DNA of 64,000 nucleotides, taken from assembly GCA_965223325.1 (NCBI GenBank), contig CBDCWI010000001.1, forward strand, positions 1,728,001 through 1,792,000, read 5' to 3'. The DNA comes from Candidatus Multivoradales bacterium (GTDB lineage Bacteria; Acidobacteriota; Thermoanaerobaculia; Multivoradales; Multivoraceae). The translations under genes were made by a program, and so were the position numbers. The notes beneath the pieces were generated by a model. It was not told the DNA's origin and ran no database searches. It saw only the letters and a list, made by a program, of their open reading frames with translations. Below are positions 25,429 through 50,766 of the stretch, one piece after another. Position 1 is the stretch's first letter. Each line of letters opens with the position of its first letter.

Positions 25429-27108
25429 ATGCCAATCATCTCTGTCACCGCCGGCCCACGTGTCGGAACCACCCTGCACTTCGAGGAAACCGCGGTCCTT
25501 GGCCGCGGCGACGGAGCCGATCTCGATCTTGGTGACCGTTCCGCCTCGCGGCTGCACGCCCGCATCGAGCTCGATGGCCGACGCTTCTATCTCGCCGATT
25601 TGGGGAGTGGAAACGGCAGCTTCCTCAACGGCATTCGGGTCATCGGCCGAGCGCCACTCTCCCATCGGGACATCGTGCGGCTCGGCATGAGCCGCCTGGA
25701 GTTTCTGCTCGAGGGCGAGAACCCGCTTCAGGCATCGTCTTCGGCAGTGGCGCTCGTCGACAGCGAGTTGAAGCTCGAACGCTCGCGCTCGTTCGCCCTC
25801 TCGAGTCTCGAAATCGCGCGCCAGATCGGCGGCGATGACCAGTCTGGCGAGGAGGTGACCGCCGGTGGCCTCCATCAGCGCCTCGAACTGCTGCACGACC
25901 TCAGCGCCATCACCACCGAAACGTTGGACCTCCACCGAGTGCTCTCGCGCTCGCTCGAGATCCTGTTCAACAGCTTCAGCACCGTCGATCGCGGCTTCGT
26001 AGTGCGCTACGACGCCCCCACGGGTGAGTTCACCCCGGTTGTCGCTCGCACCCGTGACGGTGAAGCGATCGAGATCCCGGCCAGCCTCACCCTCTTGCGC
26101 GCCGCAGTCACCGCCAGTGAAGTTCTCTTGTGTGCCGACGCCAAACAGGACCAGCGCTACGCCGAGGCGGTCTCGATGCACGAGATCAACCTCCGATCGG
26201 TGGTCTGCGTTCCGCTGGTGATCGAGAATCGCACCTACGGCGTGCTGCAGCTCGACAGCACGAGCGCGCCCTGGGCAGTCACCGACCAGGACCTGGCCAC
26301 CCTCGCCAGCGCCGGCGCCAGCATCGCTCACGCGATGGCCAACGCCGAGCTGCATCGGCGGCTCACCGAGCGCGAGGTCGAGCGACACGACCTCGAGCTC
26401 GCCCGCTCGATCCAGCAACGCTTCCTTCCCACCGCGCCACCTGAGATCAAAGGCTGGGAGTTCGCCGCCGCCTATCAACCCGCGCAAGCGGTCGGCGGTG
26501 ATCTCTACTCCTTCGTCGACTTGGCCGACGGGAAGCTGGGCATCGCACTGGGTGACGTTTCTGGGAAGGGCATCCCGGCCGCGCTCATGATGGCGCGCAT
26601 GATGAGCGATCTGCGTTACCTTTCGGTGCGCTCGGACGACCCGTCGGCAGTCCTCTCGATGCTCAATTCTGAGCTCGCCCAGCGCGGCGGCGACGGTCTC
26701 TTCATGACCATGCTCTACATGGTGCTCGACCTCCAGAAGGGACTGTTGACAATCGCCAACGCCGGCCACATGGACCCGATCGTGCGACGAGCCCATGGTG
26801 CGGTGGCCGACCTCGAGACGTCGAGGGGCCCGGCGCTCGGCCTCGACGAGTTCGCCAGCTACCCACCGGCCCGCGCACACCTCGATCGGGGAGACACAGT
26901 CCTCTTCTACTCCGACGGGCTCACCGAAGCGGCAGGGCACCAGAGTGGCGAGCGCTTCGGCCTCGGTCGACTCTGTCGAGCGCTCTTGGCGAGTGAACCG
27001 AGCGCCAGTCAGCTGGTCGACTCGGTTCTCGGCCAGGTGGCACAGTTCGCCGCCGACGACCGCCCGCAAGACGATCTGACCGCGGTCGCGGTCTCACGTT
27101 CCCCTTGA
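25429..27108 (+). CDS. FHA-GAF-SpoIIE (PP2C-type, RsbU-like) phosphatase
   Basis: FHA (LGRG..SRLHARI..GSGNGSFLNG); GAF (SVVCVPL); PP2C motifs VGGDLY, GDVSGKG, NAGH, YSDGLTEA, QDDLT. Confidence 0.92.
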   Translation: MPIISVTAGPRVGTTLHFEETAVLGRGDGADLDLGDRSASRLHARIELDGRRFYLADLGSGNGSFLNGIRVIGRAPLSHRDIVRLGMSRLEFLLEGENPLQASSSAVALVDSELKLERSRSFALSSLEIARQIGGDDQSGEEVTAGGLHQRLELLHDLSAITTETLDLHRVLSRSLEILFNSFSTVDRGFVVRYDAPTGEFTPVVARTRDGEAIEIPASLTLLRAAVTASEVLLCADAKQDQRYAEAVSMHEINLRSVVCVPLVIENRTYGVLQLDSTSAPWAVTDQDLATLASAGASIAHAMANAELHRRLTEREVERHDLELARSIQQRFLPTAPPEIKGWEFAAAYQPAQAVGGDLYSFVDLADGKLGIALGDVSGKGIPAALMMARMMSDLRYLSVRSDDPSAVLSMLNSELAQRGGDGLFMTMLYMVLDLQKGLLTIANAGHMDPIVRRAHGAVADLETSRGPALGLDEFASYPPARAHLDRGDTVLFYSDGLTEAAGHQSGERFGLGRLCRALLASEPSASQLVDSVLGQVAQFAADDRPQDDLTAVAVSRSP

Positions 27109-27115
27109 AGGGAGC

Positions 27116-27619
27116 TCAGGCCGACGCCTCGCCGCCGCTCAGGAGCTCAGCCGCTAACGCCACCCGCCGGTCGTCACGCATCGCCGGCGACGCCCCGGTT
27201 GCCGACGCTCTATCCGACTCGCCTTCGAGCAGGCCTCGAATCAGGTCACAAATCGCGGCGACCCGGTGACGCTCTTTGAGCTCGCGCAGCGCATCGGCGC
27301 GCGACTTGCGGATATCGAAGAGCCGCTTCATGCCCGCAATCTCGAACACCTGCTCGACGTCCCGGTTGGGCGCACAGACAATCATGTGACCACCCTCAGC
27401 CGACAGTCGGCGCGTTACCATCACCAGCACCCGCAGACCGGCACTCGAGATGTAGTCGAGGCCGGCCAGGTCGAGCAGCAGCTCACGACGGTCATCCTCG
27501 AGCTCGGCATTGAGGACCCGCGACAACTCGTCGCTCGAACGCGAATCGAGCTCACCAGCCAGGACCACCAGACGGACGTTCTGCACGTCGCGCACCTCGG
27601 TGTTGAACGACTGAGACAC
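27116..27619 (-). CDS. STAS-domain anti-sigma-factor antagonist with C-terminal extension
   Basis: LAGELD, LLDLAGLDYISSAGLRVL (phospho-acceptor Ser), VFEIAG. GTG start just after the upstream stop. Confidence 0.88.
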   Translation of the reverse strand: MSQSFNTEVRDVQNVRLVVLAGELDSRSSDELSRVLNAELEDDRRELLLDLAGLDYISSAGLRVLVMVTRRLSAEGGHMIVCAPNRDVEQVFEIAGMKRLFDIRKSRADALRELKERHRVAAICDLIRGLLEGESDRASATGASPAMRDDRRVALAAELLSGGEASA

Positions 27620-27624
27620 CTGGT

Positions 27625-28425
27625 TCAGCCCGGAGTCGTCTGCTTGAAGACCAGATCGACGATCCCGCAGCGCAGGCGAGCACCGTCCTCGAGAGGGTGA
27701 TCGGCGCCTGCGGCGAGCCTCTCGCTGCCCAGGAAAGTGCCATTGGACACACCGGGCTCCTCGCACAGGTAGAACCGATCAGACTTCCAGTGAATGCGCG
27801 CGTGCCGGCGCGACAAAGACCGGCCGGAGTCGATCTCGGTGAGGTCGATCTCGGGCGAGGTCCCGCTCGTCGAGTCGTAACGCCCGATGATCGCGACCTG
27901 CTGGGGTGAAAGCGGGAACTGAGTGCCGCTCGCCTCGTGCACCAACACCGCCGAGGCTGCTGTCGCTCCTGGAAGGGGTGGCGGCTGTGGGCCGTCGCCG
28001 GCGACTGGCGTCTCGAGCTCGGCGCCGGTTCGCAACGGTGCAGCCGCGATTTCGTCTGCCCGTGCCTGCGCAGCTTCGTGCTGATAGAGGCGCCGCGAGA
28101 GCTTGCGGAGCATCCGAATCAGAAGTTCGGGCTCCTGGCGCAAGATCCCAGCGAAAGTGGCCGCATCGATCGGCAGGAGCTGACAGTTCGCCCCGGCCAC
28201 TGCCGTCGCACGCCGTGGGGTGCCCTCGAGCAGCGACATCTCGCCAAAGAAGTCACCCTTTTCGATCACCCCGAGGTCTCGTTCGGCGTTGCCAAAGCGT
28301 CGCACCATGCGCACCGTTCCGGAGGCGACGATGAACATGTCCCTGCCCTCGGAGCCCTGGTCGTAGACCGTCGTGCCCTCTCTGAATGCGACCAGCAGGT
28401 CGCTACTTTCTGATTGCGAACTCAC
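27625..28425 (-). CDS. cNMP-binding + FHA domain protein
   Basis: GDFFGEMSLL..PRRATA phosphate-binding cassette; C-terminal FHA (IGRYD..SRRHARI..SNGTFL). Start uncertain. Confidence 0.85.
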   Translation of the reverse strand: MSSQSESSDLLVAFREGTTVYDQGSEGRDMFIVASGTVRMVRRFGNAERDLGVIEKGDFFGEMSLLEGTPRRATAVAGANCQLLPIDAATFAGILRQEPELLIRMLRKLSRRLYQHEAAQARADEIAAAPLRTGAELETPVAGDGPQPPPLPGATAASAVLVHEASGTQFPLSPQQVAIIGRYDSTSGTSPEIDLTEIDSGRSLSRRHARIHWKSDRFYLCEEPGVSNGTFLGSERLAAGADHPLEDGARLRCGIVDLVFKQTTPG

Positions 28426-28613
28426 GTTGCCGCCTGCCGGGCCTTCGATGGTTGAGTCTGTGGGCTTGTGCTCGATTGGGGCGGCAGTATAGCCGCGCCT
28501 TCGACCGGGCTCCTGCGTCATCGAATCGAGCCAGGGTCGGTGGCATTCCCAGGGATATTTCAGGTTGCGTTTCGGCGTCTTTGTAGGTATCTTCGGAGAT
28601 CCGATTCGCTGGG

Positions 28614-29981
28614 TTGCGCTTTCTTTGCATGATGCCTGAGGAGCAGCGTTCGAAACCGGAAGCTCTCTGGCCTTTCGTCCTCCGAGGAGGCACAACGCAA
28701 CCTCACCGCCGGCCTTTTCGGGACCGCTACCTTCACCTTCACTTGGGGACCACGCGCCCCGAACCTTTGACTTTGACCACCCCAGGCAACAAACCCAGCA
28801 GGCCGAAGACTGGTCCGACATGGCTGGCGCCCTCCGACGGAGCCCTGCGAACCGACACCAAGCTGTCTCCAGTCGCCCGACGGATTCGCGAAGCGTCGAT
28901 CAAACAGTGGGGTGAGGAGAGCGCTGTCGAAATCGTCGGGCGCTCGCAGTCGATGGTGTCGCTCCTGGAGCGCCTCGAGAAGATGGCTCCGTTTGACGAA
29001 CCAGTCCTGATTCTCGGTGAGAGCGGTGTCGGCAAGGAAGCTCTCTCGCAATCCATCTATTTGCTCGGCGAACGCACGGCAAAGCCCCTCGTCCCGGTGA
29101 ACTGCCCGCAGTACCAGGAAGGCAATCTGACCGTCAGCGAGCTCTTCGGGCACAAGAAGGGCAGCTTCACCGGCGCCGCCAGCGATCGCAAGGGCTGCTT
29201 CGAGACCGCCGACGGTGGCATCGTTTTCCTCGACGAGGTCGCCGACCTGCACATGAGCGCCCAGGTGATGTTGCTGCGCGCGCTTGCGAGCGGCGAGTTC
29301 CAGCCACTCGGCTCAGACCAGACCAAACGAGTCGACGTGCGGGTCATCGCCGCAACCAACCGCTCTCTCAACCAGCTGGCCGAGAACCGCGAGTTCCGGC
29401 GTGACCTGATTTTCAGGCTGCGCTACTTCCAGATTCACGTTCCGCCCCTACGCGAACGCGACGGCGACTGGCTCCTGTTGCTCGATCACTTCTTATTGAA
29501 CATGCACCAACGCTACGGCGTCCAGAAGCGCTTCTCCGATGCGTCGCTGCAACTGCTCGAGACCTATCCGTGGCCGGGCAACGTACGCGAGCTGATTACC
29601 GTCACCACGATGGGCTACGCCCTGGCCGAAAGGGACGTCATCGAGCCCCGCGACTTCCTCGCTCAGCTCGAGGAAGAGCGGCAACCCGAAACTCCCGACG
29701 AAAAACTCGCCACGAGCGACGAAGGGCTCGATTCGCTCTATCGCTCGCTGACCTCGAGCGATGGCAACTTCTGGGAGCTGCTCCAGGAGCCGTTCCTCGA
29801 GCGCGACCTCAATCGCCGGCAGGTCCGTCGTCTCGTCGGTCGCGGCCTGCGCGAGACCAACGGCAGCTACCGCGATCTCTGCGCGGTGTGGAACATCCAG
29901 CCCCAGCGCTACCAGAAGTTCATGGATTTCTTGAGGCATCACCGACTCAAGCCCAAGTCGTACCAGGACACAGACCTCTGA
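28614..29981 (+). CDS. Sigma-54-dependent activator (bEBP) without a recognisable N-terminal sensory domain; true start probably further downstream
   Basis: IVGRS, Walker A GESGVGKE, SELFGHKKGSFTGA, FLDEV, RVIAATNR, FRRDLIFRL, WPGNVREL. Confidence 0.9.
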   Translation: MRFLCMMPEEQRSKPEALWPFVLRGGTTQPHRRPFRDRYLHLHLGTTRPEPLTLTTPGNKPSRPKTGPTWLAPSDGALRTDTKLSPVARRIREASIKQWGEESAVEIVGRSQSMVSLLERLEKMAPFDEPVLILGESGVGKEALSQSIYLLGERTAKPLVPVNCPQYQEGNLTVSELFGHKKGSFTGAASDRKGCFETADGGIVFLDEVADLHMSAQVMLLRALASGEFQPLGSDQTKRVDVRVIAATNRSLNQLAENREFRRDLIFRLRYFQIHVPPLRERDGDWLLLLDHFLLNMHQRYGVQKRFSDASLQLLETYPWPGNVRELITVTTMGYALAERDVIEPRDFLAQLEEERQPETPDEKLATSDEGLDSLYRSLTSSDGNFWELLQEPFLERDLNRRQVRRLVGRGLRETNGSYRDLCAVWNIQPQRYQKFMDFLRHHRLKPKSYQDTDL

Positions 29982-30030
29982 TTGCCTACGATGCAAAGGG
30001 CGCACAACGGCCCTCATGTTCTGGAGGCAG

Positions 30031-30048
30031 CGCTCCATCGATGGAGCG
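30031..30048. promoter_or_regulatory. Perfect 18-bp palindrome, candidate activator-binding (UAS) site
   Basis: CGCTCCATCGATGGAGCG, about 125 bp upstream of the -24 element. Confidence 0.4.
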
Positions 30049-30168
30049 ACCGCTCTTTACCGCCCACAACGTTGGCGCCCTCAGGCGGTTGCCAAGCAAC
30101 CAATGCCCTACGGATCAAGTGCCCTGTTTAAAGCACCTTGCAGTCTGCGACGCAACGATCGGGAGTAG

Positions 30169-30185
30169 TTGGCACAGGCTGTGCT
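30169..30185 (+). promoter_or_regulatory. Sigma-54 (-24/-12) promoter of the precursor operon
   Basis: TTGGCACAGGCTGTGCT with GG-N10-GC spacing, about 70 nt before the first precursor and directly downstream of a bEBP gene. Confidence 0.78.
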
Positions 30186-30257
30186 CTCTAGCTGACTGAT
30201 CGTCAACCCCTCTCTCGGCCTGCAACAGGCCATCAATAAACCCAAGGAGATTCAGCA

Positions 30258-30590
30258 ATGGAAATGACCCGAGGCGAAATGCAGGACCTGCTCGGCAAGT
30301 TCGCAGCCGAAAGCAACACCTACCGTGACCGACTCAAGAACGACCCCAAAGAGGTCATTCAGCGCCAGTTCGGCATCGACGTGCCGGGTGCCGTGAACAT
30401 CAAAGTCGTCGAAGAGTCGGCCGACACCGTCTACGTCGTGCTCCCGCACACCGTCGAGCAGGGCGATGAGCTCTCTGACGCCGATCTCGAGGCGGTCGCT
30501 GGCGGCCACTCGATCATCAAAGACGCCAACTGCCAGGACTCGGACGGCGCCCTCAACACCGTCAACAACTTCGAGGCCTCCCTGGTCTAG
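30258..30590 (+). CDS. NHLP-leader RiPP precursor 1; core HSIIKDANCQDSDGALNTVNNFEASLV
   Basis: NHLP leader (YRDRLKNDPKEVI..GIDVP..IKVVEES..YVVLP), ELSDADLEAVAGG double-Gly site, RBS aaggag. Confidence 0.93.
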   Translation: MEMTRGEMQDLLGKFAAESNTYRDRLKNDPKEVIQRQFGIDVPGAVNIKVVEESADTVYVVLPHTVEQGDELSDADLEAVAGGHSIIKDANCQDSDGALNTVNNFEASLV

Positions 30591-30850
30591 AAGCTGCCCG
30601 GACCTCTCGAGGTCCAAGGTGGCGGCGGCCTCTCTGGCGCCGCCACCGAGCGCCTCCGTCACCCGGGGGCGTCCAGGGTGAACCGGGTTGCCCACCTGCG
30701 GCAGCCCGGTCTCACCACCTCCCCTCCCCTCCTCTCTCTTTCCGCCCATTCACTTGTGTTCTAGATGCTGCTGTCCACCAGATAGCGCTCCGGTTTCGAG
30801 TTGTTCGAAGCCGACAGCGCCCCCCACCCAACCAATGGAGGAGATCCACC

Positions 30851-31183
30851 ATGGAAATGACCCGAGGCGAGATGCAAGACCTGCTTGGCAAGTTCGCAGC
30901 CGAAAGCAACAGCTACCGTGAGAAACTGAAGAACGATCCGCGCGAAGTCATCCAGCGCCAGTTCGGAATCGACGTTCCCGGCAGCATGAACATCAAGGTC
31001 CTCGAAGAATCGGCCGACACCGCGTACGTTGTGCTTCCCCACATCGTCGAGCAAGGTGACGAGCTCTCCGACGCCGACCTCGAAGCGGTCGCCGGCGGCC
31101 ACTCGATCATCAAAGAGGCCAACTGCCAGGACTCTGACGGTGCCCTCAACACGGTCAACAACTTCGAGATGTCGCTGGTCTAG
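30851..31183 (+). CDS. NHLP-leader RiPP precursor 2; core HSIIKEANCQDSDGALNTVNNFEMSLV
   Basis: 99/110 aa identical to precursor 1; RBS ggaggag. Confidence 0.93.
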   Translation: MEMTRGEMQDLLGKFAAESNSYREKLKNDPREVIQRQFGIDVPGSMNIKVLEESADTAYVVLPHIVEQGDELSDADLEAVAGGHSIIKEANCQDSDGALNTVNNFEMSLV

Positions 31184-31207
31184 AGCCAGGGACCTCTTTC
31201 GAGATCC

Positions 31208-31252
31208 AACAAGAGCGGGAGCGCCACCTCTGGCGTTCCCGCCTCTTGTTTT
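31208..31252 (+). terminator. Strong hairpin/terminator between the precursors and lanM
   Basis: AACAAGAG-CGGGAGCGCCA / TGGCGTTCCCG-C-CTCTTGTT stem ending in a T run. Confidence 0.7.
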
Positions 31253-31339
31253 CTCGGGCGACACGCAACGTCGTCGCCCGAACCAACCATCGCTTGACAG
31301 CCCGGTCACCGCTTGAACCCTCCACCGTTCGGAGAAGGA

Positions 31340-34300
31340 ATGAACGAGGAGTCAACCTGCGAGGCTCTGACCGCTAGCGCGCGGGTCCTTTCTGAGATTC
31401 GCCTGCGCAGCGAAACGCTGTGGGAGCGGCTCGAGCGCACCCGTGGCGAAGCAGAGGCCGAGGCGCCGACAGCCGAGGCGCTGGCCCGCGCACTCTTGCC
31501 CTGGGCGAAGGCCGTCGCGCGAGGCGACCTCGGCGTCCTGTCGAAGCGGCTCTCCTGGGATGAGGTGACGACCGAAGAGGCCTATCGCGCGGTCACCGCC
31601 GAGGCACCCGACGTAGCTGACGAAACCGGTGACGATTGGACCGCCGACCTCCAACTCTTCAGCCTCTGTGCCCGTCAAACGAAGGACGAGCTCGACCGCG
31701 ACCCCGGCATCCGGGAGACCTTGCGCGCCCACGCCACTGGCCCGTTCCCGGAGATCTGGTTGCCCTGGCGACTGGTCGCAGCCGAGAAGCTGGCCAACCT
31801 GCCAGCCAAGGTGCGAGAAACCTTTGGCTCCGAGGCACTTCAGCAACTCCTGGATGTGGTCCACAACGAGCTGACCTACCTCGGCGAAAGCGCTGCCTTC
31901 AAGCGCTTCGAAACGCTTCGCGCCGAGGCAGGCGGGAACCCATCGGGAATCCACGACGCCTTCGTCGGCGAGGTGCTTTCTGACCCGATTGCCGAGCTCT
32001 ATCAGCACTATCCAGTTCTCGCCCGCCAACAGTGCCGCACGCTCGGTCAGTGGATGGCCGCGGTGCGCGAACTCTCCACCCACATCGAGGCCGCTCGCCC
32101 GCTGCTCGTAGAGACCTTCTGTGGCGCAGCCGAGGGCACCGCCGAGCTCGGCCCCGTCGCGACGCTCGAAGGCGGCCTCGGCGACCGACATCGCGACGGT
32201 CGGCAAGTGCTGCGCCTGGTCTTTGCGAACGGCCTCGAGTTGATCTACAAACCACGCTCACTGGCGGCGGAGGTCGCCTGGCGGCGAATCCTGGAATGGT
32301 GCCGTGAAGCCGGCCTCCTGTGCGCGCCAGCAACTGCGCGCGCCCTCGATTGTGGCGATCACGGCTTCATGGAAGCGGTCGTGCCATCATCACCGATCGG
32401 ACAGGCAGGTGCCGAGGCGTACTACCGCACCGCCGGCTCGCTCGTCGCCCTCGCCTACGTACTGCGGGCCGAAGACCTGCACGGCGAGAATCTGATCGCA
32501 ACCGCGAGCGGCCCGGTCGTCATCGATGCCGAGCTCATGCTGCAGCCCATGCGCGCCGTACAAACGACCGGCGAAGGCCGCGAGCCATCGTTTCTGGGTT
32601 CGGTTCTAGCTTCCGCCCTGCTGACTCAGCTCTTGCCGGGTGGCGAAGAAGACCGCGACCTGGGCGGCCTGCGCTGGCCACGAGAGCGCCTCGAGACCCG
32701 GCGTGGCTGGACGGGTCTGCATGGCGACGAGTTGGCCTTTGCCGCCGAAGAGAAGAAACTGCCGCCGCGCGAGAACGTCGTGACCGACGAGAACGGCAAT
32801 CTGTTGCCGATCGAAGACTGGTCAGAAGCAGTCGAGGACGGCTTCAGCGAAACCTGGCGGTTCCTGACCGACGAGCGCGGTGCGCTCGAAGAACTCCTGC
32901 GCAGTGAGCTCGCCGAAACCACGACCCGAGTTCTCCTGCGGCCGACGCGCGAGTACGGCCAGGTCGTTCAGCTGACCAGCATCGAGCGCAACCAGAAGTC
33001 GGGAACGATGGGGAGCCTCTTGCGCGACGCCCTCGCTAGCCGACTGGTGACCCTCGACCAACGGCCGGAGCAATGGCCCCTGCTGCGGGCGGAGCGCATA
33101 GCGCTCGAACGCCTGGACATCCCGTGGTTCGGCCTGGCGGCAAACACCACCGAGATCGAGACCGAGACCGGTGAGATCGCCCGCGGCCTGTTCGAGACCG
33201 CCGGTCTCGACGCCGTGTGCGGTCGCCTGCAAGCGCTCGACGAACGCGACCATGAGCGCCAGCTCAGGCGGCTCCGTCTCGCCCTCGCCCCAGACGCTGA
33301 GATCTCACCGGTTTCCGAGTTGATCGCTCTGAGCCTGCAGTCTGTCGGCGACGGGCCCTTCGAAGACGCCTGCCTGGCGATGGCGTGGCAGATCGCTGAG
33401 CTGGTCCGCGAGCGAGTCCTCGAGCAACCTCCCGCCGGCTGGTCCCTGTCGACCGGTCGCCTCGGACCGGCAGTCTTGTTTGCCGAACTCGCAACCTCCC
33501 GGCCCGAGACACGTCCTCCTGGCGTCGGAGAAGAGCAAGGCGAGCGCTTCGCTGCCATCGCCCGACAGCTCTCCGCCTGCGATCGCGACCTCACCCAGGA
33601 AGAAACCGAGGCCCTCCGCGACATGCCTCTCGGGGGGCCATCCGGTCTGGGCGGCGTGCTGTTCGTTCTCAACCGGCTCAGCGAAACCCTTGGTGAAACC
33701 GTCTTGCGAGAGCGCGCGCTTCTATGGAGCAGCTTCGCAACCAACGCGCGTATCGAAGCCGACCGGAGTTTCGATCTCGACGGTGGGTGTGCTGGCCTGA
33801 TTCTCGGTCTGCTGGAGCTCCATCGGGGCACCGGCGCTCCCGAGACCCTCGAGCGCGCCATCGCAGCCGGTGACCACCTGCTCGCACACCAGCGCTCTTT
33901 TGGGTCGCTCGGCGCGACCTGGAACAACGCCGCCGGCATTCCCCAGCCGGGGCTCGCCCATGGGGCCGCTGGCATCGCCACGGCGCTCGCACATCTCGGT
34001 GAGGCCACCGGCAAAGCGCGCTTTACCACCGCTGCCCTCGCAGCCATCGCCTGGGAACGCGGCATGTTCGACAGCCAGCACGGCAACTGGCCAGCCCTGG
34101 TGCGCGACCACGCCGGCGACATCAGCCGAGTGTTCATGGCCAGCGTCTGCCGCGGTGCCCCCGGAATCGCCATCGCTCGCCAAGCCCTGCCGCCGAGTCT
34201 CCGAGACAGCAGGCTGGCCGCAGAGATCGAAACCGCCCAGGACACCACCTTCCGCGCCGAGGCCGCAAGCCTCGACCACCTCTGTTGCGGCGCGCTGGGC

Positions 34301-34576: not shown

Positions 34577-34734
34577 GACATAATTCGCCCCAGTCTGCCC
34601 GAGGACTGTTCACCTCGGCTCTTTCCTCGCCTCTGGACCGCAAGCTGCCGGTTCCAGAAGCCTCTCTGATCTCTTCGTTCTTCGCCGCGGCCCCTTTGCC
34701 GCAGCTCGAAACCGCTCAGCAGGAGGAGCACCCG

Positions 34735-40157: not shown

Positions 40158-42383
40158 GTGGCAGATCCCAAGCCCGTTGTGCCAAAGGCGGAGGAACCGG
40201 AGACACCCGAACTCCCCAAGCCGCCCAACCGGCGCGTCAAGACGCCCACCATCCTGCAGATGGAGGCGGTGGAGTGCGGTGCCGCCGCGCTGGCGATCGT
40301 GCTGGGCTACTTCGAGCGCATCGTGCCGCTCGAGGAGTTGCGGGTTGAGTGCGGTGTCTCCCGCGACGGCAGTAAGGCCTCCAATGTCCTCAAGGCGGCG
40401 CGTAAATACGGGCTCGAGGCAAAGGGCTTCAAGTACGACATAGAGAACCTGTTCGAGATCGACTACCCGGCGATTCTGTTCTGGAACGCCAACCACTTCG
40501 TGGTCCTCGAGGGGTTCAAGAACGGGAAGGTGTACCTGATGGATCCCGGCCAGGGGCCGCGGGTGATCACCATGGAAGAACTCGACGCTTCGTTCTCGGG
40601 CGTCGTTCTGACGTTCAAGCCGGGCCCTGACTTTGAGCCTGGCGGCGAAAAGCGGAGCATGATGGCGGCTCTGCGGCGACGCCTGGTGGGTTCGGAGAAG
40701 GCGCTCCTTTTCACCATGCTGTGCGGCCTCTTCCTGGTTGTTCCGGGCCTGGTGATCCCGACCTTCTCGCGCATTTTCGTCGATGAGTTCCTGGTCGCCG
40801 GCCGGCCGGCGATCGTGCAACCGCTCCTGGTCGGGATGTTGTTGACCGCACTGGTCAACATCGCGCTCACCTTCCTCCAGGAGTACTACCTCCTGCGATT
40901 GGAAACCAAGCTCTCCTTGACGACTTCGAGCCGCTTCTTCCAGCACATCCTGCGACTGCCAGTGGCCTACTTTGGCCAACGCTTCGCCGGCGAGATCGGC
41001 TCGCGCGTAATGATCAACGACAAGGTCGCGCGGGTGGTCTCCGGCAAGCTCGCCACCACCGCCATCGACATGGTGATGATCGTCTTCTACGCCGGCCTCA
41101 TGATGCTCTACAGCGTCAGCCTGACGTTTCTGGTCATCGCCCTGGCCGCTCTCAACGTTGTAGCAGTCAAGCTGGTATCGCGGATTCGGATCGATGCCAG
41201 CCGCCGCCTGATGCAGGACAAGGGCAAGTTGATGGGTACGGCGATGAACGGCCTCGCCATGATCGAGACCCTGAAAGCCACCGGCGGCGAAGCCGAGTTC
41301 TTCTCGCGCTGGGCGGGCTATCAGGCCAAGACCCTGCGCGCCGAACAGCAGCTGCAACGCATGTCGGATCTGGTGACCATCGTGCCGACCTTCGTCAATA
41401 CGCTGATCACCGCAAGCGTGCTTCTAGTCGGTGGCCTCAAGGTAATGAACGGCGAGCTCACGGTAGGTCTCCTGGTGGCGTACCAGTCGCTGACGGGGTT
41501 CTTTGTCAAACCGCTCAACAACTTCGTCACCTTCGGCAACATGCTGCAGGAGCTCGAGGCCGACATGAACCGCCTCGACGACGTCCTGCGCTACCCCCAG
41601 GACGAGATGTACACCCGCGAGCCCAACAAGGCCGTCGCGGCACAGTTGTCGCGCAAGCTCAAGCTCGACGGGCTGATCGAGCTCCGAGACATCACCTTCG
41701 GCTACTCGCCACTCGACAAACCACTGATCGAGAACTTCTCGCTCACCATCCAACCTGGGCAACGGGTGGCTTTGGTCGGCGGCTCGGGGTCAGGCAAGTC
41801 GACTGTCGCGCGGTTGGTCTCGGGACTGTACGAGCCCTGGGAGGGGTCGATCATGTTCGACGGCGTCGATCGCACCGATCTGCCGCGCGAGTTGATCTCG
41901 AATTCGGTGGGCATGGTCGACCAGGAAGTCTTTCTCTTCACCGGCACGATCAAAGAGAACGTGACCATGTGGGACTCGACGATTCCCGCCGCCCGCATCA
42001 CGACCGCCTGCCGCGACGCCGCGATCGCCGACGTCATCGAAACGCGCGACGGTTCCTACGGTGCGCGCGTCGGCGAGGGCGGTGGCAACTTCAGCGGTGG
42101 CCAGCGCCAACGACTCGAGATCGCACGCGCACTGGTCGGCGAACCCACCGTTCTAATTCTCGACGAAGCAACCTCGGCGCTGGACCCCACCACCGAAGCC
42201 GCAATCGACGACAGCTTGAGGCGACGCGGTTGTACCTGCATCGTCATTGCACATCGCTTGAGCACCATTCGCGACTGCGACGAGATCGTCGTCATGGAGC
42301 GCGGCAAGATCGTCCAGCGCGGCACCCACGACGAAATGAAGGACGCCGACGGCCCCTACGCCCGGCTGATCGAGGAGCACTAG
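40158..42383 (+). CDS. NHLP-family ABC exporter, C39 peptidase/permease/ATPase subunit
   Basis: TPTILQMEAVECGAAAL (catalytic Cys), NHFVV, GGSGSGKST, FSGGQRQR, LDEATSALD. Confidence 0.95.
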   Translation: MADPKPVVPKAEEPETPELPKPPNRRVKTPTILQMEAVECGAAALAIVLGYFERIVPLEELRVECGVSRDGSKASNVLKAARKYGLEAKGFKYDIENLFEIDYPAILFWNANHFVVLEGFKNGKVYLMDPGQGPRVITMEELDASFSGVVLTFKPGPDFEPGGEKRSMMAALRRRLVGSEKALLFTMLCGLFLVVPGLVIPTFSRIFVDEFLVAGRPAIVQPLLVGMLLTALVNIALTFLQEYYLLRLETKLSLTTSSRFFQHILRLPVAYFGQRFAGEIGSRVMINDKVARVVSGKLATTAIDMVMIVFYAGLMMLYSVSLTFLVIALAALNVVAVKLVSRIRIDASRRLMQDKGKLMGTAMNGLAMIETLKATGGEAEFFSRWAGYQAKTLRAEQQLQRMSDLVTIVPTFVNTLITASVLLVGGLKVMNGELTVGLLVAYQSLTGFFVKPLNNFVTFGNMLQELEADMNRLDDVLRYPQDEMYTREPNKAVAAQLSRKLKLDGLIELRDITFGYSPLDKPLIENFSLTIQPGQRVALVGGSGSGKSTVARLVSGLYEPWEGSIMFDGVDRTDLPRELISNSVGMVDQEVFLFTGTIKENVTMWDSTIPAARITTACRDAAIADVIETRDGSYGARVGEGGGNFSGGQRQRLEIARALVGEPTVLILDEATSALDPTTEAAIDDSLRRRGCTCIVIAHRLSTIRDCDEIVVMERGKIVQRGTHDEMKDADGPYARLIEEH

Positions 42384-42389
42384 GCGGTC

Positions 42390-45300
42390 GTGTCAGAGCA
42401 GGCGAACCAGGAAACCCGTCTCAGGGTCGTGCAAACGACGGTTGCCGAGGCGCAGAACGTCGAGCTGACACTCGGCCCCGAGCCGCAGTTCATCGGTCGC
42501 GACCCGAGTTGCGACCTCACCGTCGCCGACAAGAGCATGTCGCGTCGTCACGCCAGCGTCTGGCTGGCGGCCGACGGTCGCGTCATGGTGCGCGACAACA
42601 AGAGCTCGAACGGGGTCTTCGTCGAGGGTCATCGAGTCGCCGAGCTGGCAGTGGCCAACGGTCAGAAGCTCACCATGGGCGGTACGACCTTCATCGTCGA
42701 CATGCCAGCGGCCGAGCCCGAGGAAGCAATAGACCTCGACGCCACCGCCCTTAACGAGGTCTCGGTTGATCGCACCGTCCAGATCTCGAACTTCGCCGAA
42801 GTCGCACAGCAGTTCGAGAAGCCGCGCGCGCTCGAGGAGCTCGGCCAGGGCGAAGTCACCACCGCTAACCGACCCTTCCTGATCTCGGACGCCAGCACGA
42901 TGTGGATCCTCGAAGAGGGGAAGATCGAGATCTTTACCGTCAACATAAAGAACGGTGAGCCCGTAGGAGCCCGCACCCACTTCGTCACCGTCGAACCAGG
43001 CGAGGCGTTCTTCGGGCTCGAAAGTGACTACCTCGGCTTCGACTCGGGGTTTCTCGCCGTCGGCAAGGCGGGCTCCGAGCTCGTCCGCATGGACATTGAG
43101 CAGCTCGAGCGTTTCGCCCCGGTACCCGAGCACAAGAAGCGCATTGCCGGTTTCGTTTCGCAGTGGGTGACGTCGCTCTCGAAACGTCTGGTGAGCGATC
43201 TGCCCAAGATTCCGCGCGCCGAGATCGCGCTGCGGCCCGGCGAGACGACGCTGATCGAGCCCGAGAAGGTCACCGCCCCCGGAACCGAGGTGCTGTGGAT
43301 CGAAATGCCGGCGGCGCGCTTCCTCTTCGACAGCATGGGCAGTCTGTCTTGGGAGGTCGAGGGTGTGCTGTTCCCATTGGCACCTTCTTCATGGATCGAG
43401 TTGCTGGCCAGCGACACGCCGATCGAGTTCACCCCCTACCGCACCGAAGAAGTCATCGGCGACCCGCGCCTCTGGGCCGGCTTGCAGGCGTTCCATCGCA
43501 CCTTCATGGAGTGCGAATTCATCAACAAGCGCCTGGCGGTCGTCGATGAATTCAACCGCTTGCAGCGCAAGGCCGAACGCGCCGACGCAGCGCGCGACGC
43601 CGGCATCGGTGCCATCGAGTCGGTGCTGGCGGGAACCGGCGTGTGGCGGCTGCCGAACTTCGGCAGCGACGTCGGCCCGGTCTTCGACTGCTGTGCGGCA
43701 ATCGCTCAATACCTGGGCATCGAGGTCAAACGACCGGTCGGTGATCTTGAGGACCTCAGCTTCGAAGACACGGTGCTCGCCGTGGCAACGGCGTCTCGTT
43801 TCCGCGTGCGACGGATTTCACTGGTCGACAACTGGTGGGATCTCGACCAGGGGCCCCTGCTCGCCCAACGCGAAGAGTCAAACGCACCGGTGGCTCTGGT
43901 TCCCAAAGGTCGACGCGGTGGCTACACCCTGATCGACCCGGCGACCAACGAGCGCGAGACTTTGACCGAGGACATGGCCGAGGGCCTGATCCCCTTCGCC
44001 TACAGTTTCTATCGGCGCTTCCCAGATGGCGTGCTCGGCGCCCGCGACCTGATTCGCTTCGGCACCTACGGGCTCAGACCTGAGTTCCGCGAAGTCGCAC
44101 TCATGGGAATTGCCACCGGTCTGCTCGGCACCGTCGTTCCCGCAATCACCGGCCAGGTCTTCGATTCGGCCATTCCGCAAGCCGAGCGCGCCTTCTTATG
44201 GCAGCTCTGCCTGGGCCTCTTCATGGTTGCCCTCTCGACCTCTGCGTTCAAGATCGTGCAGAACATGGCGATGCTGCGCGTGCAGTCGAAGATGGACTAC
44301 TCGGTACAGGCCGCGGTCTGGGACAGGCTGCTCGATTTGCCAATGACCTTCTTCCGCGAGTACTCGGCTGGTGACCTGGCCGACCGCGCCTCGGCGGTCG
44401 ACAAGATTCGTTCGATCATCGCCGGTGCCGGCATCGGCGCCATTCTCGGCTCTTTCGCGTCGCTGTTCAATGCCATCCAGATGGCCTTCTACAGTCTTGC
44501 GTTGGCCGGCGTCGCCATCGGTCTGACCCTCATCTACGTGTCGCTCACCACCCTTTGCAACTACTTGAAGCTGCGCCTGCAGCGCACCGAGTTCCATCGC
44601 CGCGGCATGATCACCGGCCTGGTGCTGCAGCTCATTTCGGGAGTCGGCAAGTTGCGCGTTTCGGGCACCGAGGATCATGCCTTCAAGGCCTGGGCGACCG
44701 AGTTCGCCGGCATGCGCCGCACTGGCTTCGCCGTCGGCCGGATCGGCAACTTCATGCCAGTGCTCAACGCCGGCTTTCCGGTGCTCTCCTCAATGGCGAT
44801 CTTCTTCACCATGGCGAAGCTCCAGCAGTCGGCGCTCGAGAAGGGCGAGGTGTTCGACCTCACCACCGGCGACTTCCTCGCTTTCAGCTCGGCCTACGGC
44901 ATCTTCCTGGCTGCCATGCAAGCCCTCGGCGACGTCTCCGTAAGCATGTTGGGCGTGGTGCCCATCTTCGAGCGCCTGAAGCCGCTCCTCGAAGAGGAGT
45001 CGGAGATTGATGCGAGCAAGGCTGCCCCGGCCGCACTGCGCGGCAAGATCGAGCTTTCGAACCTGTCGTTTCGTTACACCGAAGACGGCCCGCTGGTGCT
45101 CAAAAACATCAACCTCGAAATCGAGCCCGGCCAGTTCGTCGCCTTCGTGGGCGGCTCGGGCTCCGGCAAGTCGACGATGATGAAAGTCATGCTGGGCTTC
45201 CTTTCGCCCGAGAGCGGCAGCGTCTATTACGACGGGATGGATCTCTCGACGCTGGACGTGCGCATGGTGCGCCAGCAGCTCGGCGTCGTGCTGCAGGAGA

Positions 45301-45758
45301 GTCGTCTGCTGCCGGCGGATATCTACCGCAACATCGTTGGCTCGTCGTCGAAAACCGTTGCCGACGCCTGGGACGCGGCGCGCAAAGCTGGCCTTTCTGA
45401 CGACATCAAGCGCCTACCGATGGGAATGCACACCTACGTCTCAGAAGGTGGCGGCGGTTTCTCGGGCGGCCAGAAGCAGCGCCTGATGATCGCGCGAGCG
45501 CTGGTGCACAACCCGCGCATCCTCTACCTCGACGAGGCCACCAGTGCGCTCGACAACCGCACCCAGGCGATCGTCACCCAGAGCATGGACCGCCTGAACG
45601 CCACCCGCATTGTCATTGCTCACCGCCTGTCAACGGTCGTTAACGCCGACATCATCTGCTACCTCGAAGACGGCGAGCTCAAGGAAAAGGGCTCCTTCGA
45701 AGAGCTCAAGGCACTCGGCGGCGCCTTCGCCGAGCTCGCCGCCCGTCAGGAGGCTTGA
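42390..45758 (+). CDS. NHLP-family ABC exporter permease/ATPase subunit with N-terminal FHA and cNMP-like domains
   Basis: FHA (IGRDP..SRRHASV..SSNGVFV); cNMP-like WILEEGKIEIF..GEAFFG; inactive C39-like RVRRISL..WW.DQGPLL; GGSGSGKST; FSGGQKQR. Confidence 0.92.
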   Translation: MSEQANQETRLRVVQTTVAEAQNVELTLGPEPQFIGRDPSCDLTVADKSMSRRHASVWLAADGRVMVRDNKSSNGVFVEGHRVAELAVANGQKLTMGGTTFIVDMPAAEPEEAIDLDATALNEVSVDRTVQISNFAEVAQQFEKPRALEELGQGEVTTANRPFLISDASTMWILEEGKIEIFTVNIKNGEPVGARTHFVTVEPGEAFFGLESDYLGFDSGFLAVGKAGSELVRMDIEQLERFAPVPEHKKRIAGFVSQWVTSLSKRLVSDLPKIPRAEIALRPGETTLIEPEKVTAPGTEVLWIEMPAARFLFDSMGSLSWEVEGVLFPLAPSSWIELLASDTPIEFTPYRTEEVIGDPRLWAGLQAFHRTFMECEFINKRLAVVDEFNRLQRKAERADAARDAGIGAIESVLAGTGVWRLPNFGSDVGPVFDCCAAIAQYLGIEVKRPVGDLEDLSFEDTVLAVATASRFRVRRISLVDNWWDLDQGPLLAQREESNAPVALVPKGRRGGYTLIDPATNERETLTEDMAEGLIPFAYSFYRRFPDGVLGARDLIRFGTYGLRPEFREVALMGIATGLLGTVVPAITGQVFDSAIPQAERAFLWQLCLGLFMVALSTSAFKIVQNMAMLRVQSKMDYSVQAAVWDRLLDLPMTFFREYSAGDLADRASAVDKIRSIIAGAGIGAILGSFASLFNAIQMAFYSLALAGVAIGLTLIYVSLTTLCNYLKLRLQRTEFHRRGMITGLVLQLISGVGKLRVSGTEDHAFKAWATEFAGMRRTGFAVGRIGNFMPVLNAGFPVLSSMAIFFTMAKLQQSALEKGEVFDLTTGDFLAFSSAYGIFLAAMQALGDVSVSMLGVVPIFERLKPLLEEESEIDASKAAPAALRGKIELSNLSFRYTEDGPLVLKNINLEIEPGQFVAFVGGSGSGKSTMMKVMLGFLSPESGSVYYDGMDLSTLDVRMVRQQLGVVLQESRLLPADIYRNIVGSSSKTVADAWDAARKAGLSDDIKRLPMGMHTYVSEGGGGFSGGQKQRLMIARALVHNPRILYLDEATSALDNRTQAIVTQSMDRLNATRIVIAHRLSTVVNADIICYLEDGELKEKGSFEELKALGGAFAELAARQEA

Positions 45759-45772
45759 GGGACGATGGGATC

Positions 45773-47389
45773 ATGAAAGGACCCGACTCTCCTCTCATCG
45801 CCCGACGGCGGGCAGTGATTGCCGGGCTTGGAGTGAGCACCGATCTCGAAGACGAGCTCGTCGGTTACCTCGACAACCCCTACGCCGGTTCAGGTGGTGC
45901 GGCCGATCGGGAGGCCACCGACGACGAGGACGAGCCCCACGTCGCGGCGTGGCGACGTTACGCCCGCGAGGCAATGGCCGGCAGCGCAGCAAAGGTGCTT
46001 ACCGAGAAACTCGTGCAACTGCGGTTCGAGGTAGCCCCGGGTACCAGTACCGACGCCTCCTACCGGGCTGCCACGCGGCGCGGTGATATGAGCGGCGTTC
46101 CGAAAGAGCCGCCCGCCTGGGAAGACCCGCCTTCCATCGAGCTCCTCATCCACCCAACCGCCGGCGGCGCCGTTCCGGTCGTCTTCGCCGCTCATCGTGG
46201 CGACTTCGAGCGCTTGGTGCGCTCCCTCGCCGGCCGCAACGAACCCATTCCAGTCCCCCCGTCAATGGGTGCCTGTCTGGTCAAAGGGTTGATCAACCAG
46301 GACCGGGTCTCGACCTGGCGCGAAGGCCTGGAACGCGATCGCGGTCGAGCCCTCGACAAAGAAGAGTGGAGCGCGGCGTTGCGCGAGATGGCACCGCGCA
46401 AAGACCTCTACCAGGACCGCGTCTTGATTCTCTCGCGCGGCCCCTACGCCGGAAGCGAAAGGCAACAAGGCGACGGCACGCTCAACGAACAGTGGGTCCG
46501 CGACTCGACCCGACTGCGCCTCGAGCACGAGTGCTTCCACTACCTCACCTGGCGGCGCTTCGGCTTGATCCGCAGCAACCTGCTCGACGAACTGTTGGCC
46601 GACTTCACCGGCATGATCGCCGCCCTCGGCGCCTACGACCCCGAAGCCGCGCTTACCTTCCTCGGAGTGGAGCGAGGAGCCGAAGAAGCCGGCGCACATC
46701 GCCTGCTCCCCGACGCCAGGCTTCGCCTCTACCGCGGCGAGCCCGAGCTCAGCGAAGCCGCCCTTCCCGCCCTCGCCCTGCTCGCCGTCCGCGCCAGTCA
46801 CCGTCTAGCCGAGCTCACCCAGAGCCTGCCCGACCGTGAAGGCGCCACCCGACGACCAGAACTCCTCGCTCTGGCCGCAGCGGGGCTGGGAATCGAAGGC
46901 TGGTTCGAGCCAGATGCCCCAAAGAACCTGTTGGCCCGGCTCAAGAACCTTCAGCGTAAGCCACGCGAGACCAACCGCCTACTCGAGCTCAGGCGCCCGG
47001 CCGACCAGGAAGGAGTCGGCGCCTGTCTAGACGGCTTCATGAGCACCGCCCGCGCCCGCGGAATGAGCGACCGCCTACGCCGGCGCATCGCACTCACCCT
47101 AGACGAAATTCTCACCAACATCGCCAAGTACGCCTACGACAAAGGCAGCTGCGGCGACCTCTGGTTTCGCCTCTCACAACCCAGCGAAGACGTCTGGCGA
47201 CTCGACTTCGAAGACGCCGGCAAGCCATTCAACCCCATGAACCAGCCCGGCCCCGACCTCGGCCTCGACGCCCTCACCCACCGCGAAGGCGGCCTCGGCC
47301 TATGGCTTGTACGCCACCTGTCAGCCAACATGCGCTACCGCCGCCGCCTGGACCGCAACCACCTCTCGATCGCCATCCGCGACAGCTGA
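45773..47389 (+). CDS. HExxH-containing domain (DUF7005-like) fused to a C-terminal RsbW/SpoIIAB-like HATPase kinase
   Basis: LSRGPY..RLEHECFHY..LLDELLADF; C-terminal LDEILTNIAKYAY, EDAGKPFNP, GGLGLWLV. Confidence 0.8.
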   Translation: MKGPDSPLIARRRAVIAGLGVSTDLEDELVGYLDNPYAGSGGAADREATDDEDEPHVAAWRRYAREAMAGSAAKVLTEKLVQLRFEVAPGTSTDASYRAATRRGDMSGVPKEPPAWEDPPSIELLIHPTAGGAVPVVFAAHRGDFERLVRSLAGRNEPIPVPPSMGACLVKGLINQDRVSTWREGLERDRGRALDKEEWSAALREMAPRKDLYQDRVLILSRGPYAGSERQQGDGTLNEQWVRDSTRLRLEHECFHYLTWRRFGLIRSNLLDELLADFTGMIAALGAYDPEAALTFLGVERGAEEAGAHRLLPDARLRLYRGEPELSEAALPALALLAVRASHRLAELTQSLPDREGATRRPELLALAAAGLGIEGWFEPDAPKNLLARLKNLQRKPRETNRLLELRRPADQEGVGACLDGFMSTARARGMSDRLRRRIALTLDEILTNIAKYAYDKGSCGDLWFRLSQPSEDVWRLDFEDAGKPFNPMNQPGPDLGLDALTHREGGLGLWLVRHLSANMRYRRRLDRNHLSIAIRDS

Positions 47390-50764: not shown

Positions 50765-50766
50765 GC

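Follow-up and report, generated by a model that had tools for sequence, protein, structure and literature searches.

The analysed region, positions 25429..47389 of a 64,000-nt stretch of DNA (the window) from a soil-type bacterium, is probably best explained as a whole by a conserved Acidobacteriota cluster of 13 genes for the synthesis and export of one small class II lanthipeptide, with a regulatory module of its own. Domains were called with Pfam and NCBIfam (TIGR) profiles and their family cut-offs. All domains that an earlier note had listed for this DNA were recovered in their places by these profiles. The gene list thus stood as to its domains; the strand of the STAS and cNMP-FHA genes, however, had to be corrected to minus, so that both diverge from the gene of the sigma-54 activator (bEBP). 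The note had also reported radical SAM, YcaO and methyltransferase genes as missing, and indeed the Pfam and NCBIfam searches gave no match for them in the cluster. Since the intergenic gaps within 25429..47389 are 276 nt or less, there is no space for such a gene. The searches made also detected no membrane receptor in the cluster, and a sigma-70-family domain was not matched in any cluster protein (Pfam, NCBIfam); neither a sigma factor nor a Hanks-type kinase is encoded there.

Two NHLP precursor genes are present, preA1 (30258..30590, +; TIGR03793, 69.0 bits, cut-off 50.9) and preA2 (30851..31183, +; 66.5 bits, same cut-off). By direct reading, the preA1 leader ends with the double-glycine site AVAGG and is followed by the core HSIIKDANCQDSDGALNTVNNFEASLV, from which the preA2 core differs at two positions. 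These cores contain the Ser/Thr and Cys needed for a thioether, as is expected of a class II lanthipeptide. Between preA2 and the LanM gene lies a terminator-like hairpin of 12 pairs with a T-rich tail (31215..31242, +). LanM, the class II lanthipeptide synthetase (31340..34576, +; TIGR03897, 509.6 bits, cut-off 304), is the only LanM of the genome and combines a dehydratase domain (DUF4135, 6.4e-74) with a cyclase domain (LANC_like, 5.6e-31), both called by Pfam. Its sequence contains the motifs VCRGAPG, HLCCGALG (CCG type, ProcM-like) and EDLHGENL on direct reading; going by known LanM enzymes, we take the first two to be the cyclase zinc ligands and the third to be the kinase-type catalytic loop. 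Downstream are two outer-membrane efflux proteins of the OEP/TolC family (34735..36819, +, start at 34573 or 34735, OEP 3e-28; and 36816..38909, +, OEP 8.8e-25, overlapping the former by 4 nt), the HlyD-type adaptor of the NHLP system (38982..40133, +; TIGR03794, 277.1 bits, cut-off 156.2), the C39 peptidase-ABC exporter (PCAT; 40158..42383, +; TIGR03796, 1094.7 bits, cut-off 853.3; Peptidase_C39, 1e-35) and a second exporter ABC subunit, FHA-ABC (42390..45758, +; TIGR03797, 849 bits, over the cut-off; FHA, 3e-14). The FHA domain of this subunit is N-terminal and the TIGR03797 match starts at residue 430, while about 330 residues in between (100-430) matched no Pfam family. From LanM to the gene for DUF7005 the gaps range from -4 to 158 nt, which is operon geometry. 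Judged from the sequence, LanM, the NHLP-leader precursors with their double-glycine site, the three-gene NHLP exporter and the two outer-membrane proteins are one tight operon.

The core peptides were compared across genomes. One Cys and one Thr are invariant in the cores of 15 precursors from nine genomes. LanM would dehydrate this Thr and close a single methyllanthionine ring to the Cys, after which the C39-ABC exporter would cleave behind AVAGG and export the peptide. In G028 there is no Ser or Thr N-terminal to the Cys, so there the ring would have to run the less usual way, from Cys to a downstream Thr. Core identity (52-63%) was close to leader identity (59-64%) in the comparison with G401, G403 and G404, and paralogous precursor copies within one genome were identical or nearly so.

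The best-supported step of the proposed mechanism is the predicted link from the bEBP through its upstream site to the sigma-54 promoter. The bEBP gene (28743..29981, +, start approximate; Sigma54_activat PF00158, 4e-57) belongs to an ORF that opens at 28614, and orthologues, with 51-65% identity, align from about residue 45-80. The protein carries GSFTGA, a GAFTGA-type loop (direct reading), and scored 229 bits against TIGR02974 (pspF), under the cut-off of 443.55. Its first 112 and last 93 residues had no Pfam match: there is no N-terminal sensory domain, and no HTH family was matched by the C-terminal 93 residues, though the C-terminus is conserved among orthologues. The genome contains rpoN. 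A -24/-12 promoter, TGGCACaggctGTGC (30170..30184, +), is located 88 nt before the preA1 ATG and is preceded by the tandem sites TGGAGGcagcGCTCCA and TGGAGCgaccGCTCtt, 20 bp apart (30022..30057, +), which are putative bEBP sites. A -24/-12 promoter was found ahead of the first precursor gene in all ten promoter regions from eight genomes, with a variant -12 element in G401; tandem TGGAGC-N4-GCTCCA sites, 20-21 bp apart and ~100 bp upstream of the -24 element, were present in eight of these ten regions and not found in those of G403 and G404. Of the 144 sigma-54-like motifs in the whole genome, only four have a good upstream site, and three of these four are precursor loci. The pair of promoter and upstream site recurs in distant genomes and, in this one, marks all four precursor genes, at three loci, including two orphan precursor genes elsewhere in the genome. 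The exact palindrome occurs only three times in 6.69 Mb, once upstream of the orphan preA3. With one mismatch allowed, the 16-mer was counted 55 times per strand, fewer than the 274 of the reversed control; the motif alone is thus weak, and position and conservation carry the argument. For the LanM-exporter operon and the regulatory genes no promoter was identified. In the proposed mechanism, the sensor-less, PspF-like bEBP would bind the TGGAGC-N4-GCTCCA sites and drive precursor transcription, and the hairpin after the last precursor gene would let only part of this transcription reach the LanM-exporter operon. Because it has no sensory domain, the bEBP might itself be controlled in trans. 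A sigma-54 activator of this sensor-less kind is PspF, which PspA restrains in trans.

The remaining regulatory genes encode parts of a partner switch and a cNMP-binding protein. An FHA-GAF-PP2C phosphatase of the SpoIIE/RsbU type (25429..27108, +; SpoIIE 6.1e-48, FHA 7.7e-16, GAF 5.7e-12) has full-length orthologues of 33-42% identity in G305, G028, G307, G235 and G401-G404. The STAS protein, of the anti-sigma-antagonist type and with a C-terminal tail (27116..27619, minus strand; PF01740, 1.4e-18; TIGR00377, 84.5 bits, cut-off 53.45), has a phosphorylatable Ser that is invariant in 5/5 aligned orthologues. The cNMP-binding and FHA protein (27625..28521, minus strand; cNMP_binding 1.5e-20, FHA 3.6e-8) was given its start at the ATG where the orthologue alignment begins. 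Together with the RsbW/SpoIIAB-like serine kinase described below, the PP2C and the STAS protein with its Ser provide by domain and fold matches the three components of a partner switch; a sigma factor as the alternative partner of the kinase is not encoded with the system, and therefore it is not classed here among the canonical sigma-regulating switches, although it may work like one on another target. Upstream of the PP2C gene, and divergent from it, lies a Lon protease paralog (22899..25565, minus strand; Lon_C 2.3e-79; TIGR00763, 769.7 bits), the listed ORF of which runs long, with the family match beginning at residue 105. It scores lowest of the four full Lon paralogs of the genome, and a Lon gene is found at the same place in two of the four relatives with the same gene order (G402 and G403). 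It is a possible accessory of the cluster, its membership being uncertain.

The earlier note had described a fusion of an HExxH domain to RsbW, which proved correct; the HExxH domain is known in Pfam as DUF7005 (45773..47389, +; PF22541, 6.1e-89; HATPase_c_2 PF13581, 4.3e-14). The C-terminal kinase domain matched the RsbW structure 6m37_A (E 6.9e-5, target TM-score 0.78). At least 17 of 80 loci have DUF7005 and the kinase in one protein, and separate, neighbouring genes encode them in L058, L088, G028 and G307. Exporter genes were present in the DUF7005 neighbourhood in all 11 loci of the phylum, and the domain adjoins NHLP exporter genes in Acidobacteriota, Gemmatimonadota and Cyanobacteria. 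Across phyla, 405 loci were found. In 49 sequences H252, E253, H256, E273 and D277 are invariant (HECFH in the window), an HExxH...ExxxD pattern that we take to be a thermolysin-like signature. The structure model of DUF7005 (pLDDT 92) had no convincing structural relative in Foldseek, where the best E was 0.49, and the best Z in VIA was 4.5; VIA did not place thermolysin (Z 3.9, rmsd 6.3, 177 aligned), collagenase G (3.8), an M36 protease (3.7) or pseudolysin (3.5) above unrelated rows. Neither a signal peptide nor a membrane segment was visible on direct reading. DUF7005 is put forward as a candidate, predicted zinc hydrolase, which might have the leader as its substrate or be responsible for a second step of processing.

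The signalling parts could in principle be general regulators (PP2C, STAS, cNMP-FHA and bEBP) that merely adjoin a RiPP cluster. Such domains abound in genomes of this kind, and the regulatory genes form separate transcription units. This possibility is nevertheless hardly credible, as it is already contradicted by synteny. At least eight further genomes of Acidobacteriota have the same gene set (G305, G028, G307, G401-G404 and, minus the partner switch, G373), so that these genes accompany the cluster in several families and in two gene orders: that of the window in G401-G404, and a different one in G305 and G028, both of which have the complete set. In G307 the set is present up to the contig end. 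The cNMP-FHA gene was found in 10/10 loci of the cluster's type, PP2C and STAS in 8/10, and the bEBP in all eight loci for which DNA upstream of the precursors was available. Among 401 genomes of the phylum, 15 have a full LanM; six of these are of the cluster's type, all with cNMP-FHA, whereas the other nine carry an unrelated LanM and in none of them did the signalling genes accompany it. The kinase is, moreover, fused to a cluster protein, an FHA domain is fused to the exporter in 22/80 loci, and a bEBP-type site with its promoter stands ahead of the precursor genes, the two orphan copies included. The earlier note had named beforehand, as fatal to its reading, homologous LanM/precursor loci that do not retain the signalling genes; on the contrary, these loci retain them, and the signalling genes are a conserved part of the cluster. 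The gene set forms a conserved unit rather than a chance neighbourhood. Within the DNA examined, G373 and the Gemmatimonadota loci have no partner switch; the switch is therefore an accessory layer, dispensable in some versions.

The way in which the PP2C/STAS/kinase switch and the three FHA domains connect to this system can only be inferred. FHA-GAF-PP2C, STAS and the RsbW-like kinase might constitute a partner switch without a sigma factor, which would most likely gate DUF7005, the predicted zinc hydrolase at the exporter, because the kinase is fused or adjacent to it; alternatively, the switch might report its own state back to the bEBP. The cNMP, GAF and FHA domains might bring in intracellular signals. 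In a rival reading the switch would have the bEBP, not DUF7005, as its target: the AAA+ activator would be bound by STAS or by the kinase domain (cf. PspA-PspF), and DUF7005 would only sense the leader or precursor load. This would fit with the lack of a regulatory domain in the bEBP and with the transcription of STAS and cNMP-FHA, which diverges from that of the bEBP in the window as well as in G401-G404. We regard it as rather unlikely, as the bEBP is kept without the switch in G373 and the Gemmatimonadota loci, and so can work without it. It is conceivable, if improbable, that the FHA domains of the phosphatase, the cNMP protein and the second ABC subunit all read a phosphothreonine that LanM makes of the invariant Thr in the core. 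No other enzyme encoded in the window's cluster phosphorylates Thr, and LanM is present in 10/10 of the FHA-bearing loci examined, while an FHA domain is missing from the four DUF7005 loci that have no LanM nearby. On that long shot the cluster would sense its own biosynthetic intermediate and thereby couple modification, export and transcription; if true, this would be a new principle of regulation, in which an intermediate of RiPP biosynthesis serves as a phospho-signal. As for the product, it is quite possible that the cluster makes an ordinary regulated bacteriocin, with export alone for protection and with the sigma-54, partner-switch and cyclic-nucleotide parts just timing a costly production. 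This is compatible with every regulatory step proposed above and differs solely in the function of the product. NHLP or Nif11 leaders with LanM and a three-gene exporter are a known RiPP layout (Haft et al. 2010; PMC2887384), and a related cyanobacterial class II product was reported as antibacterial and antifungal in the abstract of PMC13060382. Against this stand the cores, which are about as conserved between families as the leaders, their identical or nearly identical paralogous copies, the net charge of about -3 of the window core (direct reading), and the absence of an immunity gene from the cluster in domain searches that were not aimed at small immunity proteins. Cores that are conserved rather than hypervariable, identical paralogs, a single ring, a negative charge and no immunity genes speak for a signalling or structural peptide: a conserved, anionic, single-ring peptide that several identical genes encode may do something other than kill competitors. 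Antibiotic activity would be compatible with all of these points.

It is mostly for their enzymes that RiPP clusters are mined; how they are controlled is seldom understood, which is one reason why many stay silent in the laboratory. The cluster offers a defined candidate switch, made up of a single activator, a palindromic site and a sigma-54 promoter and conserved in a phylum of which little has been cultured; it could serve to turn on such clusters. It would also represent a partner-switching module without a sigma factor, wired to a peptide exporter, and it provides a first functional context for the DUF7005 family. In the literature searched we found no description of a cluster with a conserved sigma-54 switch and a phosphorylation circuit, nor did a characterised cluster with the same layout turn up, which was the other finding that the earlier note had named as fatal to its reading.

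Compared with RsbU/RsbV/RsbW and SpoIIE/SpoIIAA/SpoIIAB, the cluster shares the PP2C, the STAS protein with a conserved Ser and a GHKL serine kinase of the RsbW/SpoIIAB fold. Unlike these systems, it has no sigma factor, its kinase is fused to the predicted zinc hydrolase of a peptide exporter, and its phosphatase bears FHA and GAF input domains. SypE/SypA in Vibrio fischeri is a non-sigma partner switch beside the sigma-54 activator SypG. Like PspF, the bEBP of the window is an AAA+ sigma-54 activator without an N-terminal regulatory domain; in contrast to that system, no PspA-like gene is present in the cluster, and the candidate trans-regulators are the STAS protein, the RsbW-like kinase and the cNMP-FHA protein. 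With the NHLP/Nif11 class II clusters of the prochlorosin/ProcM type, as presented in the accessible part of Haft et al. (2010; PMC2887384), it has in common an NHLP leader over the cut-off, the CCG motif of LanM, the double-glycine site and the TIGR03794/TIGR03796/TIGR03797 exporter. It differs from them in having, instead of many diverse cores, a single conserved core with one Cys that is present in several identical copies, and in adding two outer-membrane proteins, the bEBP with its sigma-54 promoter, the partner switch, cNMP-FHA, an FHA domain on the second ABC subunit and the DUF7005-kinase fusion; the words FHA, sigma, cyclic nucleotide and Acidobacteri- are absent from that part of the text. 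A class II lanthipeptide cluster of Myxococcus fulvus pairs a PCAT with the M61 zinc protease MfuP, according to section 7 of a review (PMC10885120), and so sets a precedent for such a pairing. As far as that section describes it, both are Gram-negative class II clusters with a C39-ABC and a second, HExxH-type metalloenzyme (putative here), but DUF7005 is not an M61 protein, has no solved relative and is fused to a kinase.

The earlier note had listed the parts of a lanthipeptide cluster between 25.4 and 47.4 kb, and every one of them was recovered when the long open reading frames were scanned with Pfam and NCBIfam. An FHA-GAF-PP2C phosphatase gene (25429-27108, plus strand) is followed by genes for a STAS protein (27116-27619) and a cNMP-binding/FHA protein (27625-28521), both on the minus strand. 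On the plus strand then come the sigma-54 activator (bEBP; about 28743-29981), the NHLP precursors preA1 (30258-30590) and preA2 (30851-31183), LanM (31340-34576), two outer-membrane efflux proteins (34735-38909), an NHLP-system adaptor, a C39-ABC protein, the second ABC subunit and, as the last gene of the operon, a DUF7005/HATPase_c_2 fusion that ends at 47389. The NHLP, LanM and all three exporter families exceeded the curated NCBIfam cut-offs. From LanM through the last gene the intergenic gaps range from -4 to 158 nt, and a strong terminator-like hairpin, at 31215-31242, is located 3′ of the second precursor gene. A search for RNA records over 27000-36000 of the window returned none. The earlier note had seen no radical SAM, YcaO, methyltransferase or immunity genes; the cluster leaves no space for additional enzymes. 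A genome search returned only this one LanM, whose translation shows both the CCG zinc motif and a catalytic loop as expected. Both efflux proteins measure ∼690 residues, as compared to 414 positions in the TolC model, which covers just their C-terminal parts, and the pair is kept in loci of Acidobacteriota and Gemmatimonadota.

Whether the signalling genes belong to this cluster was assessed from the side of LanM and from that of DUF7005. Among 401 genomes of the phylum, LanM scored over the cut-off in 15. Six of these were of the window type, with a LanM 30-39% identical to that of the window (the match in G316 was split and spanned this range), and the cNMP-FHA gene was kept in all six. In contrast, the other nine genomes encode an unrelated LanM (24-29% identity), and the signalling genes were detected in none of them. 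One genome, G373, contains all parts save the PP2C, STAS and kinase genes. The earlier note had regarded the signalling genes as part of the cluster and had named their loss from homologous LanM/precursor loci as evidence to the contrary; the loci of this type compared here retain them.

Few genomes of the phylum encode DUF7005 (13 of 401 sampled); in nine genomes of the window's own family, neither it nor LanM was found. The DNA around 11 of these DUF7005 loci was compared with the window's proteins by tblastn. NHLP exporter genes neighbour DUF7005 in all 11, and the second ABC subunit in 10, the eleventh contig being just 7 kb long. The complete set, namely the bEBP, two to three precursors, LanM, two outer-membrane efflux proteins, adaptor, both ABC proteins, DUF7005 with the kinase, PP2C, cNMP-FHA and STAS, is present in G305 from the same class and in G028 from another family, with the regulatory genes placed differently than in the window. 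In G307 the set is present as far as the contig end, and G235 has a partial set on a 15-kb contig. DUF7005 and the exporter occur without a nearby LanM in G334, G365, G176 and G285, where tblastn around DUF7005 detected no bEBP, STAS or cNMP-FHA and a partial PP2C-like match in G334 only.

A wider scan with a 12-sequence DUF7005 alignment (A3) as query, using one genome per GTDB species, yielded 405 confirmed loci from Acidobacteriota (Thermoanaerobaculia, Vicinamibacteria and Terriglobia), Gemmatimonadota, Cyanobacteria, two Actinomycetota and one betaproteobacterial MAG. The best 80 of these 405 were tabulated with up to 10 kb per side and with taxa as named in the sequence records. Among these 80, the 40 acidobacterial loci included 14 with PP2C, 17 with STAS and 11 with cNMP-FHA, and the three genes were detected in none of the 6 Gemmatimonadota and 26 cyanobacterial loci within these flanks. 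Five of the six Gemmatimonadota loci did contain a bEBP, together with a precursor, LanM, efflux proteins and exporter. When four short-flank loci, G401 (Candidatus Multivoraceae) and G402-G404, were re-examined with extended flanks, their gene order proved to be exactly that of the window.

A sigma-54 promoter, TGGCACaggctGTGC, is located 88 nt ahead of the first precursor ATG, and rpoN is present in the genome. We compared ten upstream regions, comprising those of the first precursor in the window, G305, G028, G401-G404 and locus L112, and those of two orphan precursors elsewhere in the window's genome. All ten contain a -24/-12 element 88-132 nt 5′ of the ATG, with a variant -12 element in G401. 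In eight of the ten, the palindrome TGGAGC-N4-GCTCCA (two mismatches at most) lies about 80-190 nt upstream of this element, mostly as tandem sites spaced by 20-21 bp; it was not found upstream of the first precursor in G403 and G404. The bEBP has no Pfam domain N-terminal to its AAA+ module, is 51-65% identical to its orthologues and is conserved at the C-terminus. On this sequence evidence, we infer that the bEBP binds the palindromic upstream sites.

The orphan precursors were encountered without prior expectation through a genome-wide search for the palindrome. Exact copies number three, one of which lies on the other contig, 264 nt 5′ of a third precursor gene. A fourth precursor gene, detected by family search, has a promoter and two one-mismatch sites. 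The two orphan genes (G000:C2:3680731-3680970, L036/L131; G000:C1:1343907-1344146, L130) are distant from the cluster, and both encode a core identical to that of preA2 behind their own sigma-54 promoter and TGGAGC-N4-GCTCCA site or sites. The upstream motif itself is not enriched genome-wide (55 copies versus 274 for the reversed control). Of 144 sigma-54-like motifs in the whole genome, only four have a good site no more than 320 nt upstream. Three of these belong to the precursor loci; the fourth site-promoter pair (G000:C2:4355778-4356944, minus strand; L138) stands ahead of a small ORF (75 residues) without a family and a gene for a membrane protein of the PAQR/TrhA (HlyIII) family. Homologues of the latter in G305 and G402-G404 have neither site nor promoter within 1.5 kb, and none was found in G401; because the pair is absent in the relatives, we did not count this gene as a conserved regulon member. 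Another canonical sigma-54 motif, TGGCACaggcgTTGCT, is located at about 10800 on the minus strand of the window, upstream of a 363-residue ORF (9599-10690) without a Pfam family.

In 15 aligned precursors from nine genomes, one Cys and one Thr are invariant, the Thr being located 6-13 residues downstream of the Cys. Leaders are 42-66% and cores 22-63% identical to those of preA1; in G401, G403 and G404, core (52-63%) and leader (59-64%) are similarly conserved. Precursors from the same genome differ little or not at all, and three of the four in the window's genome encode the same core. The predicted product is most likely 25-37 residues long and has one methyllanthionine ring, which in preA1 and preA2 would join Cys9 and Thr18. 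In G028 the core lacks any Ser or Thr N-terminal to the Cys, suggesting that the ring there runs from the Cys to the Thr that follows it.

The PP2C, STAS and RsbW-like kinase proteins form a candidate partner switch. The STAS Ser is invariant in all five orthologues compared, and no sigma factor is encoded in the cluster. The C-terminal domain fused to DUF7005 resembles RsbW, SpoIIAB and UsfX in a structure search with the full-length model, and such fusions occur in at least 17 of the best 80 of 405 loci; in G028, G307, L058 and L088 the kinase is encoded beside DUF7005. Judged from gene fusion only, the switch would most probably pair with or act on DUF7005, since the kinase is fused to it in some genomes and adjacent in others. 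Complex prediction for DUF7005 (residues 1-395) with the kinase (402-538) allowed no call, neither for nor against (score 0.00; mark 0.32).

DUF7005 itself was modelled with a pLDDT of 92 and a pTM of 0.92. Residues H252, E253, H256, E273 and D277 are invariant in 49 sequences, giving an HExxH...ExxxD pattern that we take to be thermolysin-like. By sequence, a single chance-level match to solved structures was obtained (E 0.06); Foldseek with the full-length DUF7005-kinase model matched the kinase domain only, and structure searches with the domain-only model returned no clear solved relative. That a further processing step may occur has a precedent in a class II cluster described in a review (PMC10885120, section 7), which encodes a second zinc protease in addition to a PCAT.

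The FHA domain of the second ABC subunit spans residues 35-97, and the family model match begins only at residue 430. For residues ∼105-440, no Pfam family and, by sequence search, no PDB relative was found; ESM Atlas led to cNMP-binding clusters, all sub-threshold (scores 0.79-0.83). The G-R, S-x-x-H and N-G residues are retained in the translations of all three FHA domains of the cluster. Among the best 80 of 405 DUF7005 loci, 22 encode a second ABC subunit with a fused FHA domain. No Thr kinase besides LanM is encoded in the window.

Of the four full Lon paralogs in the genome, the one beside the cluster (22899-25565, minus strand) diverges most; it may degrade leaders or regulators. G402 and G403 have a Lon gene in the corresponding place. 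In five relatives, a gene for a HAD-phosphatase/kinase-like protein of ∼495 residues lies directly 3′ of the bEBP gene, before the precursor promoter (L124:12148-13644; same place in L125, L126, L127 and G305), and in G401 it overlaps the bEBP gene by 4 nt. In this protein, a HAD phosphatase domain (8.6e-22) is joined to a C-terminal domain that has a DLRPRN motif, looks kinase-like and has no PDB sequence relative; no orthologue was found in the window's genome. Directly downstream of the cluster, positions 48653-56413 hold a DUF222/HNH endonuclease gene and two IS3-type transposase copies with identical Pfam scores, followed by a gene for an RHS-repeat protein (56619-60659). The cluster may lie on the border of a mobile region.

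The earlier note knew of no characterised cluster with this layout, and none emerged from the literature searched. No paper was found that joins NHLP or LanM with sigma-54, antagonist or enhancer-binding terms, nor one on DUF7005 (PF22541), though supplementary cluster figures of PMC13060382 and PMC10787088 might show such genes; further searches on the cluster gave nothing relevant. The biosynthetic and export core has the layout described by Haft et al. 2010 (PMC2887384), a paper in which the words FHA, sigma and cyclic nucleotide are absent. We regard the cluster as belonging to a known type of RiPP, under a conserved layer of control that appears to be undescribed, and as a new context for DUF7005.
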